64,000 nucleotides of DNA from a virus (Duplodnaviria; Heunggongvirae; Uroviricota; Caudoviricetes), in the IMG/VR virus record IMGVR_UViG_3300043436_004120, positions 1 to 64,000 of that record; one strand, given 5' to 3'. Below the pieces are notes generated by a model. It did no database searches, was not told where the DNA came from, and worked only from the letters and a program-made list of their open reading frames with translations. Below are positions 14,440-23,319 of this stretch, in pieces (positions within the stretch are counted from its first letter, which is position 1; every line of letters begins with the position of its first letter). The position numbers were made by a program, and so were the translations under genes.

Positions 14440-14700
14440 CCGCCATGCTTGCCTAGCACGTCCCTAGTATTAGGCAGCACACTTCGGTCGAAACGGGTGA
14501 AAGCCCCGTCTTTGTAAAATAAACGCCCCGCCGCTGTAGAGGGGATGTTTCGGATATTCTAAGATACAGCAGGACTGTCGTCCTGGTTCAAGACTATATT
14601 GAGACACTTTAGGGAGTGTCTCCATATAAAAGCACATACTGTTCCGCCCTCTAGTAAGGGAGATAGCGACTAGCGTTGAAGGACGGTTTAAATGTGTTTT
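14440..14700 (+). ncRNA. candidate structured ncRNA (multiple GC-rich hairpins) preceding a tRNA-like element
   Basis: No ORF; consecutive perfect hairpins (ACGGG-TGAAAGC-CCCGT, CAGGAC-TGTC-GTCCTG, GAGACACT-TTAGGG-AGTGTCTC and others). Confidence 0.3.
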
Positions 14701-14705
14701 TATAT

Positions 14706-14876
14706 GGATCGGTAGCTTATATGGTTAAAGCACAAAGCCGGCATACAACACTTTTGAATGTAGATAGTTGACCCTGGCCCTGCAACGGCGTAATCAGCTA
14801 CAATTCAGCCTGAGTTCGAATACATGGTCGTGTGTTGTATAATTTTAGGAAGCAGGTTCGAGTCCTGCCCGATCCA
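14706..14876 (+). tRNA. interrupted tRNA-like gene (canonical 5' acceptor/D-arm and 3' T-arm/acceptor separated by a ~100-nt insertion)
   Basis: 5' GGATCGG-TA-GCTT..AAGC and 3' GCAGG-TTCGAGT-CCTGC-CCGATCC-A-CCA pair perfectly, yet no standard anticodon arm can be folded between them. Confidence 0.35.
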
Positions 14877-15018
14877 CCATAATTTAACACATTAGGCGAA
14901 CAATGGCTCCTATTGCAGCCTAAGTAGTTTAATGTGTTAAATTATGGGTTTAAAAATTTACACTTGTGGTTATATGCTTTTTCAAGTATAATTACTACTC
15001 TTTGAAAGAAACACTACC

Positions 15019-15982: not shown

Positions 15983-16044
15983 CTTAACGGCTAAAGTAGT
16001 GGGCTTTTAACCTACAAATCAGAGTTCGATTCTCTGTGCGTCTA
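15973..16044 (+). tRNA. tRNA-Lys(TTT)
   Basis: Acceptor GGACGTA/TGCGTCT, D-stem ACTT/AAGT, anticodon loop CTTTTAA, T-arm CAGAG-TTCGATT-CTCTG. Confidence 0.75.
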
Positions 16045-16170
16045 CCATATTTGAGTGCATTAGCAGTTGGCGTTCAACCACTTGTTTAATCCTTGCAAGG
16101 CAACACGTCTAGGGAACAAAGTACAAGTTCCAAAAGTGGACGCTAGTGCATTCAAATATGGTATTTAACC

Positions 16171-16698: not shown

Positions 16699-16771
16699 GC
16701 AACTTTAGCTGATGTGGTCATAGCGGTCGCCTGAAGAGCGATGGAAACAGGTTCGATTCCTGTAGGTTGCA
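16699..16771 (+). tRNA. tRNA-Phe(GAA)
   Basis: Acceptor GCAACTT/AGGTTGC, anticodon stem GTCGC/GCGAT with loop CTGAAGA, T-arm ACAGG-TTCGATT-CCTGT. Confidence 0.7.
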
Positions 16772-16778
16772 CCAAGTA

Positions 16779-16903
16779 TTTATAAGTTTGACCCTAAGTT
16801 GGAGTGATTACCAATCCTTTACGAACGGACTAATCCACCTAGTAGTTGCAATAGGCCCACGTCTCAACTCAAAATTGCCCGTGGTTAGGGTTAAACTTAT
16901 AAA
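16779..16903. repeat. 19-bp inverted repeat TTTATAAGTTTGACCCTAA / TTAGGGTTAAACTTATAAA flanking ~87 nt, immediately upstream of an ACACTTG..TATAAT promoter
   Basis: Read directly; the arms carry the GACCCTAA core. Confidence 0.55.
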
Positions 16904-16958
16904 TATTCACTTGAACACACAGCTTAACTGCTGTATAATTAATCTTTAAACAAACAAC

Positions 16959-18651: not shown

Positions 18652-18927
18652 CCAAATTGGGTCTAAAGTGTTCATGGACGCACACGGCACTGTCACTGCC
18701 GAAGAGTGGGGATCGTTACCCCCTAGACCCGCCAAAACCTGCCTTAGGTCCGTGCCGTTCCGGTTAGAGCGTCCGTAATCCAATCGGTAGCTACGACAAT
18801 GCTACGCTGTATATCGTAAGCAGCATTATTATTTTAGTATATAACTATCCATTATAAACAAGCAGCAGAGACGCTGTTGTCCAACGATCACATCATCGGG
18901 GTAAGGGGTTGTATGCTAAAATAATAT

Positions 18928-20060: not shown

Positions 20061-20131
20061 GCCCTTGTAGTATATTGGTATTACAGTTGCCTTGTAAGCA
20101 TCAAAAGAAGGTTCGATTCCTTACTGGGGCA
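20061..20131 (+). tRNA. tRNA-Thr(TGT)-like with mismatches in three stems (possible pseudo-tRNA)
   Basis: Acceptor GCCCTTG/CTGGGGC (one mismatch), anticodon loop CTTGTAA, T-arm GAAGG-TTCGATT-CCTTA (one mismatch). Confidence 0.3.
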
Positions 20132-20239
20132 CCATATTTTAGCACACTGCTCGCCACTTAATAAATAAATGCAGAGCCGCACCGGTCACGCTTTCTGCGG
20201 GTAACTAGAAACACCTGGCCAGGGTTTAATCTAGCTTGG

Positions 20240-20690
20240 GTAGTGTGCTAAAATATGGTTGTATGAAGCAAAAAGAAAAGAATTCTGGACGCGGGTTCGA
20301 CTCCCGCCAGCTCCACCATAAGCGCGCGCAGAGGGTAGTATGTAAGCCATAAGTACATTGGCTGAGGACTGGGATTCCCTTCCTACTAACAGTAGGGCGC
20401 TTTTGATGGGGCTGCCTTGGTTTCGACAGGGTTACAAGTAAGCAAGTGGACAACTAGGTAATGCAGAAGCCTTAGGATTGGGGATTCCCGGTCGCAGAAG
20501 CAAAACAAAAATAAACGCAAACGATCAAGTTTACGCTTTAGCAGCTTAATTGCCGCTTAGGGTTTGGCCAGTTCCTCGTAACAGAATACTGGCACTATAG
20601 TTTAGCACTTTAGAAGCCCACACCTTGTCGACTAGGGTATCTAGAACGTGGTTACGACGCCTGTCCGTTAGAGTGCTAAACTATATTAAA
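20240..20690 (+). ncRNA. ssrA: circularly permuted (two-piece) tmRNA (ssrA): acceptor piece ~20240-20318 ending GGACGCGGGTTCGACTCCCGCCAGCTCCACCA; coding piece from ~20408 (GGGGCTGCCTTGGTTTCGACAGGG) with tag reading frame 20517-20549 (A)ANDQVYALAA
   Basis: The 3' segment is near-identical to the E. coli tmRNA 3' end but lies UPSTREAM of the GGGGCUG...UUCGAC 5' segment; tag ORF GCAAACGATCAAGTTTACGCTTTAGCAGCTTAA; two ~16-bp long-range stems (20141/20241 and 20596/20676) flank the pieces. Confidence 0.8.
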
Positions 20691-20697
20691 GGAACCC

Positions 20698-21291
20698 ATG
20701 AACAAAGACAATTATATCGACCCTAAGTTGTTTGGTCAGGACAAGTATAGTAATAGCTTTTCAAAGCCAGTTGCACAGCTTCATGAGTTTTACCTAAGCG
20801 GCCCTGTGCTGGATGCTGAAGAATACATTGAATGGTTTGATACAATCCGTAATGCATCGGAGATTGATACCATTCGCATTTACATTAACTCACCTGGCGG
20901 TGACTTGTATACCACACTACAGTTCCTACGAGTAATGTCGGACACACCTGCTACTATTGTTACCAGTGTAGAGGGTGCTTGCATGAGTGCAGCTACCATG
21001 ATCTTCTTACACGGTCACACGCATGAAATCACGCCACACAGCTTGTTTATGTTTCACAACTATAGTGCCGGAACATTTGGCAAAGGTGGCGAAATGTACG
21101 ATCAGCTACAGTTTGAGCGCAAGTGGTCAGAGAACTTTATGCGAGCAGTGTACCGCGACTTTTTAGCTGAAGATGAAATTCAAAGTATGCTCAACAACCG
21201 TGACATTTGGATGACCTCAGATGAGGTTGCACAGCGGCTAGAAAAACTGCAAGAGGCTCGTGCACAACAAGCCAAAGAGTCCAAAGAATAA
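20698..21291 (+). CDS. clpP: ClpP-family serine protease
   Basis: 197 aa; YINSPGGD motif, Ser in GACMSAAT, His in FMFHNYS, C-terminal Asp region; strong SD AAAGGAA upstream; directly follows the tmRNA. Confidence 0.65.
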   Translation: MNKDNYIDPKLFGQDKYSNSFSKPVAQLHEFYLSGPVLDAEEYIEWFDTIRNASEIDTIRIYINSPGGDLYTTLQFLRVMSDTPATIVTSVEGACMSAATMIFLHGHTHEITPHSLFMFHNYSAGTFGKGGEMYDQLQFERKWSENFMRAVYRDFLAEDEIQSMLNNRDIWMTSDEVAQRLEKLQEARAQQAKESKE

Positions 21292-21296
21292 ACAGT

Positions 21297-21385
21297 GGGT
21301 GGTAATGCAGCGGGGTTGGTCCTGCGACTGGCCTTGAAAACCAGGTTCCGTTAACGCGGATGGGGTTCGACTCCTCTGCCACCCG
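21297..21385 (+). tRNA. selC-like / allo-tRNA with 8-bp acceptor and 4-bp T-stem (8/4), long variable arm, discriminator G, anticodon TGA (Ser, UCA codon)
   Basis: Acceptor GGGTGGTA/TGCCACCC (8 bp, perfect); anticodon hairpin CTGG-CCTTGAAAA-CCAG aligns with E. coli selC CTGGA-CTTCAAA-TCCAG; T-arm GGGG-TTCGACT-CCTC; 89 nt. Confidence 0.55.
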
Positions 21386-21458
21386 CCATAGTTAAGTATA
21401 TTTGGGGCTGCTAGACGCCGTGGGTTGTCACTCACTTTAAGCGTGAATATACTTAATT

Positions 21459-21782
21459 ATGGCAATATCATTTAAAAATATCAAAGACCCTAAACTGGGG
21501 TTAACCGACACACTAACATTTGGCAAACTAAAAGGCTGCCGTGTATGTGATGTTGCACAAGATCACTACGAATACTTGATCTGGGCTGAAAAGTCTGGTT
21601 ATGTTAAATATCAAGCAGAAGTTGTTGCACTAATCCAAGAGCAGGCTAGTTTTGCGGCTTGGCAGATCAATGAAGCTGAAGAAGTTGCCCCTTACATGGA
21701 CGGCAACAAATATGAATACTTGGCAGAAATTGCCAGCCGTCAAGACTATGATACCAGTTTTGATGACGATGTACCTTTTTAA
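21459..21782 (+). CDS. hypothetical protein (N-terminal MAISFKN shared with ORF 40335)
   Basis: 107 aa; first 20 nt of the coding sequence almost identical to the start of 40335..40976. Confidence 0.45.
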   Translation: MAISFKNIKDPKLGLTDTLTFGKLKGCRVCDVAQDHYEYLIWAEKSGYVKYQAEVVALIQEQASFAAWQINEAEEVAPYMDGNKYEYLAEIASRQDYDTSFDDDVPF

Positions 21783-22267: not shown

Positions 22268-22296
22268 TTGCAAAGTTACCCTAAATCTAGTATAAT
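22268..22296 (+). promoter_or_regulatory. sigma70 promoter TTGCAA-N17-TATAAT
   Basis: Consensus hexamers; followed by SD AGGGGG and the ATG of the fibre gene. Confidence 0.6.
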
Positions 22297-22312
22297 GGTG
22301 CTAGATTTAGGG
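22279..22312. repeat. operator-like palindrome CCCTAAATCTAG-tataatggtg-CTAGATTTAGGG straddling the -10 element
   Basis: Perfect 12-bp inverted arms carrying the CCCTAA core. Confidence 0.6.
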
Positions 22313-22356
22313 TATTTTTATTTGCCCAGTTATAAACTAAAATAGGGGGTACGGTT

Positions 22357-23319
22357 ATGCCATTACCATCGTCTGGTGCGATATCATTATCACAGGTCAA
22401 CACTGAACTTGGACTAAGTGCAACCGCAACTATTAGCATGAATGATGCTGCTGTACGAACACTGTTTGGAGTGGGTGGTAGTGGTACTACAATATCCATG
22501 TCGCAAGGCTACGGCAAAGCAAACGCGTTTTCTTTTACTATTAGCAGCAATCAAACCAACGCCAACCTTCGCACACTGGCCGTAAACGCTGGTTGGAATC
22601 AGTCCAGCAAGGTTATTGCAACCATCGGTAGTGGTATATTCATCAGCAGTAACGGTACTGGAACTACTGCCCTTACAATCAGCGGTAGCTTTCCTGGCGG
22701 AGTTGACCTAATCAACAACGGCACTATTGCTGGCATGGGCGGCGCTGGTGGTATTGGTGCTGCCGTCAACAGTAGCGCCGTCGCCACTCCAGGTACTGCT
22801 GGCGCTAGCGGTGGATTGGCACTTTCTGTTTCTTCTGCTGTTAGCATAACCAACAACGGCACTATCGGTGGCGGTGGCGGCGGCGGTGGTGGTGGTCAGG
22901 CCGCCCGGAACCGGTACTACGATCGGGATTCTAGAAATCTTTGGGGTGGTGGTGGTGGTGGTGGTCAATCAAGCGCTGCGGCCAACTCAGCAGGTGGTGC
23001 TGCCGGCAGCACCACATATGGTTTTGACATGACTACCCTGCCTCAACCGGGTGGTGCAGGCACATCTAGTGGTGCTGGGGCAGGTGGAGCAGGATCCACC
23101 GACACCGTCGCCTACCCCCCTAACCCGGGCTATGGTGGTGCTGGCGGTGCTGGTGGCACACGAGGTGCGGCTGGCGCAAGTGGAGGAAATTATTCTGCGA
23201 CTGGCCCTGTATTGTCCCTAACCGGTCCATACAGTGGCGGCAGTGGCGGTGGTGCCGTATCGGGCAGTGCAAATATAACTTGGCTGGCGACCGGAACTCG
23301 CCTTGGAGCAATAACATGA
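22357..23319 (+). CDS. glycine-rich fibre-like protein (putative tail fibre)
   Basis: 320 aa; long poly-Gly/GGAGG repeats; followed by, and translationally coupled (ATGA) to, a tail-fibre assembly chaperone. Confidence 0.5.
   Translation: MPLPSSGAISLSQVNTELGLSATATISMNDAAVRTLFGVGGSGTTISMSQGYGKANAFSFTISSNQTNANLRTLAVNAGWNQSSKVIATIGSGIFISSNGTGTTALTISGSFPGGVDLINNGTIAGMGGAGGIGAAVNSSAVATPGTAGASGGLALSVSSAVSITNNGTIGGGGGGGGGGQAARNRYYDRDSRNLWGGGGGGGQSSAAANSAGGAAGSTTYGFDMTTLPQPGGAGTSSGAGAGGAGSTDTVAYPPNPGYGGAGGAGGTRGAAGASGGNYSATGPVLSLTGPYSGGSGGGAVSGSANITWLATGTRLGAIT

Follow-up and report, generated by a model that had tools for sequence, protein, structure and literature searches.

A putative circularly permuted two-piece tmRNA in the tRNA array of an uncultivated, apparently T5-like phage

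Positions 1 to 64,000 of the viral record IMGVR_UViG_3300043436_004120 (the window, 64,000 nucleotides (nt) in length) contain two blocks that resemble the halves of a bacterial transfer-messenger RNA (tmRNA, encoded by ssrA). The blocks lie in reversed order inside an array of tRNA genes. They are bordered by long inverted repeats and followed by a gene for a ClpP-like protein. The question raised by this locus is whether the two blocks make up a working split tmRNA and whether the repeats and the ClpP-like gene belong to it. Judging from sequence comparison, a functional circularly permuted two-piece tmRNA of the beta type is very likely encoded here, among the tRNA genes of an uncultivated and apparently T5-like phage.

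The permuted tmRNA and its conservation

The 3' half of the tmRNA, GGACGCGGGTTCGACTCCCGCCAGCTCCACCA, occupies 20287-20318 and the 5' half, GGGGCTGCCTTGGTTTCGACAGGG, begins at 20408, 89 nt beyond it. ARAGORN run on the window called a permuted tmRNA (tmRNA*) at 20226-20640 with the tag ANDQVYALAA*. The Rfam model tmRNA_permuted (RF04321) matched 20257-20549 with 119.9 bits against a gathering score of 47 (E 7.8e-23). The model beta_tmRNA (RF01850) matched 20212-20604 over its full length (model positions 1-331) with 95.4 bits against a gathering score of 84. These scores are far beyond chance. ARAGORN and both models placed the pieces in the permuted order that a first-pass annotation of the sequence had described, namely an acceptor half with its CCA ending at 20318, an intervening segment and a coding half starting at G20408. 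The tag (A)ANDQVYALAA read by the same annotation was confirmed by ARAGORN in the frame 20517-20549, with the codons GCA AAC GAT CAA GTT TAC GCT TTA GCA GCT TAA.

The acceptor stem has 7 bp (20408-20414 with 20314-20308, GGGGCUG/CAGCUCC) and includes a G3:U70 wobble. The annotation had stated in advance that it would fall if these two strands did not pair; they pair in the window and covary in relatives. The T arm at 20291-20307 reads GCGGG-UUCGACU-CCCGC, and the CCA is encoded. The P2 connector is formed by 20257-20262 with 20450-20455 and by 20281-20286 with 20428-20433. In the Rfam alignment the middle of P2 is purine-rich and unpaired in the window tmRNA. The first stem of pseudoknot 1 (PK1), 20456-20459 with 20469-20472, showed C-G to A-U changes among 26 related loci. 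The coordinates of these and all other features are given in Table 1.

Relatives were gathered in two ways, with the ClpP-like protein (80 viral contigs) and with the invariant loop of the last tmRNA hairpin (at least 120 viral contigs). The 26 related loci were aligned with the window (alignment A1) and a larger set held 118 distinct full-length tmRNA sequences. When the written structure was placed on A1, 96.6% of cells were paired and 20 of the 40 pairs were changed on both sides. None of 500 shuffles scored as high, and slid controls were 33-52% paired. P2 cells were 98-100% paired with six pairs changed on both sides, as were three of the five pairs of the T-arm stem. Acceptor pairs 4-6 covary; in the 118 sequences pair 4 was GC in 72 and CG in 43, and pair 5 was CG in 59, GC in 40 and AU in 14. 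Covariation in this set extended to the T arm, the stop-codon hairpin, the 3' hairpin and the two parts of P2. G3:U70 was preserved in 115 of 116 sequences.

The 33-nt tag frame was preserved in 115 of 118 relatives with the consensus AND-x-x-(F/Y)-ALAA. Synonymous codon variation was plentiful (GAC/GAT 58/46, TTA/TTG 67/43, GCC/GCT 90/24), so the tag peptide including its ALAA end is under selection. ALAA is known as a protease-targeting tag end (PMC3985003).

Across the tmRNA family the intervening segment is 20-185 nt long, and it ends in a conserved TTTTGAT before G+1. Its sequence is otherwise unconserved. The helix closing it had a mean contiguous length of 10.1 bp, compared to 5.4 bp when ends from different sequences were combined. 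This leader-trailer helix, which is distinct from the long inverted repeats, is the conserved precursor helix of the tmRNA family, maintained by compensatory change.

A working cycle for this tmRNA can be proposed. The tmRNA shares the plus strand with the tRNA array and the ClpP-like gene, and one transcript probably covers all three. Following established tmRNA and tRNA processing, an RNase P cut at G20408 would create the 5' end of the coding piece and 3' processing would expose the encoded CCA. What lies between, the 89-nt segment with its closing helix, would be discarded. The acceptor piece (~62 nt) and the coding piece (~188 nt) pair by the 7-bp acceptor stem and P2, as shown by covariation, and would give a tRNA-like domain with G3:U70 as the alanine identity pair. 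Host alanyl-tRNA synthetase (AlaRS), SmpB and elongation factor Tu (EF-Tu) would then load the tmRNA onto stalled ribosomes. Translation would resume at GCA and (A)ANDQVYALAA would be added, the ...ALAA end being the part that cellular ATP-dependent proteases would recognise. The window tmRNA probably relies on AlaRS, SmpB and proteases of the host. No promoter or terminator signal above shuffled background was found between 19.0 and 22.3 kb, and the first strong terminator-like hairpin lies at 22277-22314.

Several observations weigh against a functional beta-type tmRNA that is complete without the inverted repeats. For the second PK1 stem the covariation scan gave only noisy G/U-rich pairs. 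Two elements of the Rfam beta model, the 4-bp helix in the middle of P2 and the final hairpin, do not form in the window RNA, which is therefore a divergent member of the beta type. Where the acceptor piece begins and the coding piece ends was judged solely from the edge of sequence conservation in A1. SmpB, together with ClpX and SspB, was not found by tblastn with E. coli queries, weak evidence given that the window spans only 64 kb; as none was found, the tmRNA would have to use host SmpB. Within the clade, hairpins of the kind formed by the inverted repeats are much commoner at tmRNA borders (75% upstream and 42% downstream) than after ordinary tRNAs (12%).

Two further observations were made on the tmRNA. 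In three loci of A1 (L006, L010 and L020; columns 285-305 and 480-500) the T loop is GGCAGUG in place of UUCGACU, and the D-loop analogue is CACAGGAUCGA in place of CAUGGUUUCGAC. This looks like co-variation of a T-loop/D-loop contact. In the intervening segment, 20364-20385 (CTGAGGACTGGGATTCCCTTCC) resembles the PK1 region of the coding piece at 20471-20493 (CTTAGGATTGGGGATTCCCGGTC). The same PK1-like stretch is present in the intervening segments of L010 and L013 and might be either a fragment that was duplicated or a mimic of the structure.

Table 1. Features of the tmRNA locus and its surroundings in the window
Feature	Coordinates	Strand	Details and evidence
tmRNA acceptor piece	20257..20318	+	3' strands of P2, T arm; Rfam RF04321 and RF01850; covariation
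Acceptor-piece sub-features	20308-20314; 20316-20318		acceptor stem 3' strand (20308-20314); discriminator A; CCA (20316-20318)
Intervening segment (predicted to be excised from precursor)	20319..20407	+	closing helix 20320-20325 with 20396-20401
tmRNA coding piece	20408..20595	+	ARAGORN; Rfam; pair counts in 26 and 118 sequences
Coding-piece order	20408-20414; 20428-20433; 20450-20455; 20456-20510		acceptor strand (20408-20414); D-loop analogue; P2 (20428-20433, 20450-20455); PK1 region (20456-20510); tag frame
Coding-piece 3' part	20540-20557; 20567-20593		stop-codon hairpin (20540-20557); 3' hairpin (20567-20593) with invariant loop UUCCUCGUAACAGAAUA
Tag reading frame	20517..20549	+	resume GCA, ANDQVYALAA, stop TAA
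ClpP-family serine protease homologue	20698..21291	+	197 amino acids; ribosome-binding site AAGGA 20689-20693
Spacer hairpin 1	20131..20259	+	perfect 18-bp arms 20131-20148/20242-20259; 93-nt structured interior
Spacer hairpin 2	20596..20685	+	17-bp arms (94%) 20596-20612/20669-20685; 56-nt interior; between coding piece and ClpP-like gene
Spacer hairpin 3	21385..21463	+	18-bp arms; 43-nt interior; starts at CCA of tRNA-like gene
Further spacer hairpins of the array	14621-14708; 14877-14947; 16043-16163; 16760-16922; 18827-18926
tRNA-Thr(UGU)	20061..20134	+	last tRNA before tmRNA; ARAGORN; RF00005 50.5 bits; 3' ACCA starts hairpin 1
tRNA-like gene with long variable arm	21297..21388	+	directly after ClpP-like gene; continues the array

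The ClpP-like neighbour

The gene following the tmRNA was annotated at first pass as a ClpP-family protease, and this assignment held. The product matched Pfam CLP_protease (PF00574) over residues 51-177 with E 5.8e-13 and 49.5 bits against a cut-off of 20.2, and phrog_1827 ('ATP-dependent protease') with E 3.8e-62. Residues S97, H120 and D169 aligned with the catalytic triad of Coxiella ClpP (3q7h) and were invariant in 31 homologues. The protein resembles cellular ClpP in its PF00574 score above cut-off, its Ser-His-Asp triad and its length (197 compared to 195 amino acids). It is only distantly related, however, with a best PDB sequence match of E 2.8e-05. The AlphaFold2 model had a predicted local distance difference test score (pLDDT) of 68, with low confidence in the handle (residues 120-141) and the N-terminal 30 residues. 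With this model, Foldseek against the PDB found SppA and ClpP chains with a probability of 1.00 and a template modelling (TM) score of ~0.5. The modelled fold thus supports the superfamily, and it does not separate ClpP from SppA.

The first-pass annotation had described the tmRNA as fused to clpP. This was wrong, since ~100 nt with a separate hairpin element lie between the conserved RNA end and the start codon, which is located 12 nt past the second hairpin. The two genes are adjacent only. They are probably co-transcribed.

The linkage was counted from both sides. Among 69 non-redundant loci with the ClpP-like gene, the tmRNA was directly upstream in 26, 0.6-2.2 kb away in five and missing in ~36; two were not assessable. 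Arrays of the same type with ClpP and no tmRNA were L026, L030, L031, L035-37 and L039-41, and there the gap between tRNA and ClpP was as small as 60 nt. From the other side, 79 viral tmRNA loci had at least 3 kb of downstream sequence. Within that distance the window's ClpP type was present in four of these, a second ClpP-like family in 19 and no ClpP-like gene in 55. Members of the second family have 185 amino acids, are 27-32% identical to the window protein and lie 1.1-2.6 kb 3' of the tmRNA, with GroES-like and SleB-like genes between. As arrays keep ClpP without tmRNA and most tmRNA loci have no ClpP nearby, the ClpP-like gene has been in the array for longer than the tmRNA, which took up its upstream position in a single clade. 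That the two adjoin each other is a matter of synteny inside this clade, and the description of the pair as one module was overstated.

A dedicated viral tag-and-degrade module, in which the phage would tag nascent chains with ...ALAA and its own ClpP with host ClpX or ClpA would destroy them, is the alternative that survives best, and is still rather unlikely. The genes are co-oriented and ~100 nt apart with no terminator between, and their adjacency is preserved in the 26 non-redundant loci. The (F/Y)ALAA tag is under purifying selection and has the protease-targeting end cited above (PMC3985003). The second lineage, with its different ClpP-like family 3' of the same tmRNA family in 19 loci, points in the same direction. 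This must be set against the related arrays that retain ClpP at close distance to a tRNA with no tmRNA, and against the 55 of 79 tmRNA loci with no ClpP-like gene in the 3 kb downstream. Cultured phages with the same tmRNA type have no adjoining ClpP. Phages with phrog_1827 proteins (ICP1, Hena1, DU_PP_V and XacN1) carry the homologue among lysis or replication genes with no adjacent tmRNA; in XacN1, the closest cultured homologue, it is among replication genes. At most two independent linkage events are counted, the remainder being shared descent, and the handle region, which bears on ClpX binding, is a low-confidence part of the model. A functional link between tmRNA and ClpP is at most suggested.

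It is a tentative idea, doubtful on present counts, that beta-type two-piece tmRNAs were recruited more than once beside phage ClpP-like proteases, in T5-like phages and in phages with ~170-kb genomes where a GroES-like gene lies between. If this repeated recruitment were true, some phages would run their own tag-and-degrade (proteostasis) unit during infection. Were the recurrent neighbourhood of tmRNA and ClpP-like genes functional, phages would control both the tagging and the destruction of aborted or host proteins.

A recurring gene set was observed in viral contigs of ~95-175 kb. In L136 (1045-3691), and similarly in L157, L113, L141 and L092, the tmRNA is followed within 2.6 kb by genes for an outer-membrane-like protein, a GroES-like co-chaperonin (87 amino acids), a SleB-like cell-wall hydrolase and the second ClpP-like protein.

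Spacer hairpins of the tRNA array

The two pairs of inverted repeats reported at first pass exist, at coordinates (Table 1) that differ slightly from those given, 20141-58/20241-58 and 20597-610/20676-89. Hairpin 1 spans the gap from the CCA of tRNA-Thr to the start of the tmRNA acceptor piece and folds with -49.4 kcal/mol. Its stem in A1 had 12 of 15 pairs changed on both sides, with 86% of cells paired compared to 22-57% in slid controls. Its sequence family has 14 members in which the internal stems covary. Hairpin 2 is absent from many related loci. Hairpins of its family were located upstream of the tmRNA in L001, L002, L015 and L019, and the hairpin 1 type was located downstream in L010 and L011.

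Elements of this kind recur throughout the array. They are 70-160 nt in size with arms of 17-38 bp, interiors of 35-93 nt and the arm consensus CCATATTTTAGCAC / GTGCTAAAATATGG. The left arm nearly always starts at ACCA and the right arm ends within a few nt of the 5' end of the following tRNA or tmRNA piece. In the window and 44 related loci, a hairpin was found at 45 of 385 distinct tRNA 3' ends compared to 31 of 1925 random positions. By sequence the hairpins were sorted into at least 12 families. One family may occupy different sites in different genomes, and both outer and internal stems covary. No Rfam family for the hairpins and no ribozyme was found at E up to 1 over 13-23 kb, and nothing relevant on hairpins in phage tRNA arrays was found in the literature.

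Hairpins flanked the tmRNA of this clade in 18 of 24 cases upstream and 11 of 26 downstream, compared to 5 of 66 and 7 of 67 in other phages. As they are rare around the same tmRNA elsewhere, the hairpins are a trait of the tRNA arrays rather than of the tmRNA. On the sequence evidence, both long inverted repeats are members of a spacer-hairpin family specific to this clade and not parts of the tmRNA.

The first-pass annotation had seen in these repeats long stems for RNase III-type processing of the precursor. That the permuted precursor needs them to form the ends lying beyond RNase P and 3' processing is improbable, a little more so than the tag-and-degrade module. The stems are 17-18 bp long with covarying arms, and they directly adjoin the tmRNA pieces, at the conserved start of the acceptor piece and the conserved end of the coding piece. 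Hairpins are also far commoner at the tmRNA borders of this clade than after ordinary tRNAs (45/385), with interiors that differ. On the other hand, several close relatives with an intact tmRNA (for example L027, L003 and L023) have none; across the tmRNA family, long stems of this kind do not accompany the precursor consistently. The low counts in other phages that carry this tmRNA family, the hairpins of like build between ordinary tRNAs, and interiors that are separate conserved structures at changing sites all argue for a facultative, array-wide element. A helper role in forming the ends outside RNase P and CCA maturation is possible given the frequency of hairpins at tmRNA borders.

Three other roles for the repeats were considered and rejected. 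A closing helix between the right arm of hairpin 1 and the left arm of hairpin 2 does not fit the relatives, where the two hairpins are present or absent independently. An origin of hairpins 1 and 2 as halves duplicated during permutation does not fit the arm consensus at ordinary tRNA spacers or the interiors from different families. A -10 element (TAAAAT or TATAAT) in the right arm was considered as a tmRNA promoter; it lies 2-3 nt from GGUUGU and the promoter scan was at background.

Processing of the tRNAs might set the hairpins free as discrete small RNAs; alternatively, they might be cassettes that move or recombine. Stable RNAs whose function is not known are likewise encoded in the tRNA cluster of phage T4. 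As a structured, apparently mobile family between the CCA end of one tRNA and the 5' end of the next, the spacer hairpins are worth separate study.

Remaining readings, known systems and genomic setting

Phage tRNA arrays are often linked to countering host attack on tRNAs, and the tmRNA gene sits in such an array. The main role of the phage tmRNA might be competition or decoy activity, directed at host tmRNA-SmpB or at a host defence nuclease cutting tRNA-like RNAs, and not tagging. A tmRNA-like RNA of mycobacteriophage DS6A, which has no tag frame, inhibits host tmRNA (PMC11915505). The window family differs in that it conserves, with synonymous changes, a resume codon, a frame of 10 codons, a stop codon and the ALAA end. 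A decoy would need none of these parts and this role is very improbable for the window tmRNA. Still weaker, to the point of being negligible, is the reading of the two blocks as nonfunctional remnants of degraded ssrA genes, such as fragments from a prophage attachment site: ssrA 3'-end fragments are common in temperate phages, and Klebsiella and Citrobacter phage records match only ~40 nt, but the window RNA matches the covariance model at full length, its acceptor strands pair with compensatory changes, G3:U70 and the tag frame are preserved, and 118 distinct full-length relatives exist, which together refute it.

A functional permuted tmRNA in the window would not be the first in a phage. 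Buchholz et al. (PMC9004378) reported 133 unique tmRNAs in 18,146 phage genomes, of which 53 were two-piece by ARAGORN, mostly from marine or aquatic phages. The tmRNA database holds 79 phage sequences (PMC11915505). The OM43 phage Melnitz and the pelagimyophages share with the window a permuted ssrA found by ARAGORN in a lytic phage; there, phage tmRNA type and host type may differ, and the same roles in ribosome rescue and tagging during infection were proposed (PMC9004378). Those tmRNAs are of the alpha-proteobacterial type, with a glutamine riboswitch in Melnitz, whereas the window tmRNA is of the beta type in a 26-tRNA array of a putative T5-like phage. No riboswitch was matched by Rfam at the window array.

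The two-piece tmRNA of beta-proteobacteria was described by Sharkady and Williams (2004), as cited in PMC3985003 and PMC9004378. Compared to it (RF01850), the window tmRNA has the same permuted order and tRNA-like domain, an ANDxxFALAA-type tag and a related 3' hairpin loop (CCUUGuuACcaAAg in the model, UCCUCGUAACAGAAUA in the window). It differs in being phage-borne, in the unformed middle P2 helix and last model hairpin, and in the long intervening segment with its covarying closing helix.

The same beta-type RNA is present in cultured Stenotrophomonas phages of Menderavirus (Marzo, Moby, Mendera, IME-SM1 and others) and in Xanthomonas phage BUDD. The Marzo tmRNA scored 119 bits with RF04321 and 94.6 bits with RF01850 and was called permuted by ARAGORN, much like that of the window. 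In these phages too the tmRNA lies among tRNA genes, and it is annotated as tmRNA in GenBank. Their tags are longer and different (VAANDDSYTVRIAA and VAANDADYSVARYA by ARAGORN). Unlike in the window, no ClpP-like gene stands beside the tmRNA. DNA similarity to the window is confined to the acceptor piece (~85% over 65 nt).

The loop motif traced the tmRNA family to at least 120 viral contigs, and in 83 of these ARAGORN called a permuted tmRNA. In 185,579 species genomes (596 Gb) the exact 17-nt motif had 20 matches and only three of these had a tmRNA, all in metagenome-assembled genomes. The other matches were about what chance would give for a 17-mer in 596 Gb. This is evidence that the sub-family is mainly phage-borne. 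The advance over the split tmRNAs already known in phages is modest, consisting of an apparently T5-like carrier and this mainly phage-borne sub-family. The beta-type split tmRNA circulates widely among uncultivated phages, including phages with differing likely hosts, and its spread bears on why lytic phages carry ribosome-rescue RNAs.

A T5-like replication module is present in the window, where genes were identified for a PolA-type DNA polymerase, a DnaB-like helicase, an NAD-dependent ligase, SbcCD and ribonucleotide reductase. The closest cultured DNA polymerases were those of Vibrio phages with ~51% identity, and no cultured phage gave a megablast match to 24 kb of the window. From its gene content the carrier would be an uncultivated T5-like phage. 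ARAGORN predicted 26 tRNA genes around the tmRNA, all on the plus strand. The tRNA-like gene after the ClpP-like gene scored 37.9 bits with the Rfam tRNA-Sec model, below the gathering score of 47. It was missed by ARAGORN at default settings and called at a relaxed threshold. By eye its anticodon loop may hold UGA (Ser), and relaxed ARAGORN proposed a different fold. In L017 and L025 a tRNA-Met was called at this position.

Another tRNA gene at 14706-14879 (Rfam tRNA 40.3 bits over 171 nt) has its anticodon loop split by a 99-nt insert, the ends of which are inverted repeats (CATACAACAC ... GTGTGTTG). It was called by ARAGORN only in intron mode at a relaxed threshold, and spacer hairpins lie on both sides. 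Just past the tRNA array, an open reading frame (ORF) at 22357-23319 encodes a protein of 320 amino acids that is very rich in glycine, alanine and serine, with glycine runs of up to 11.

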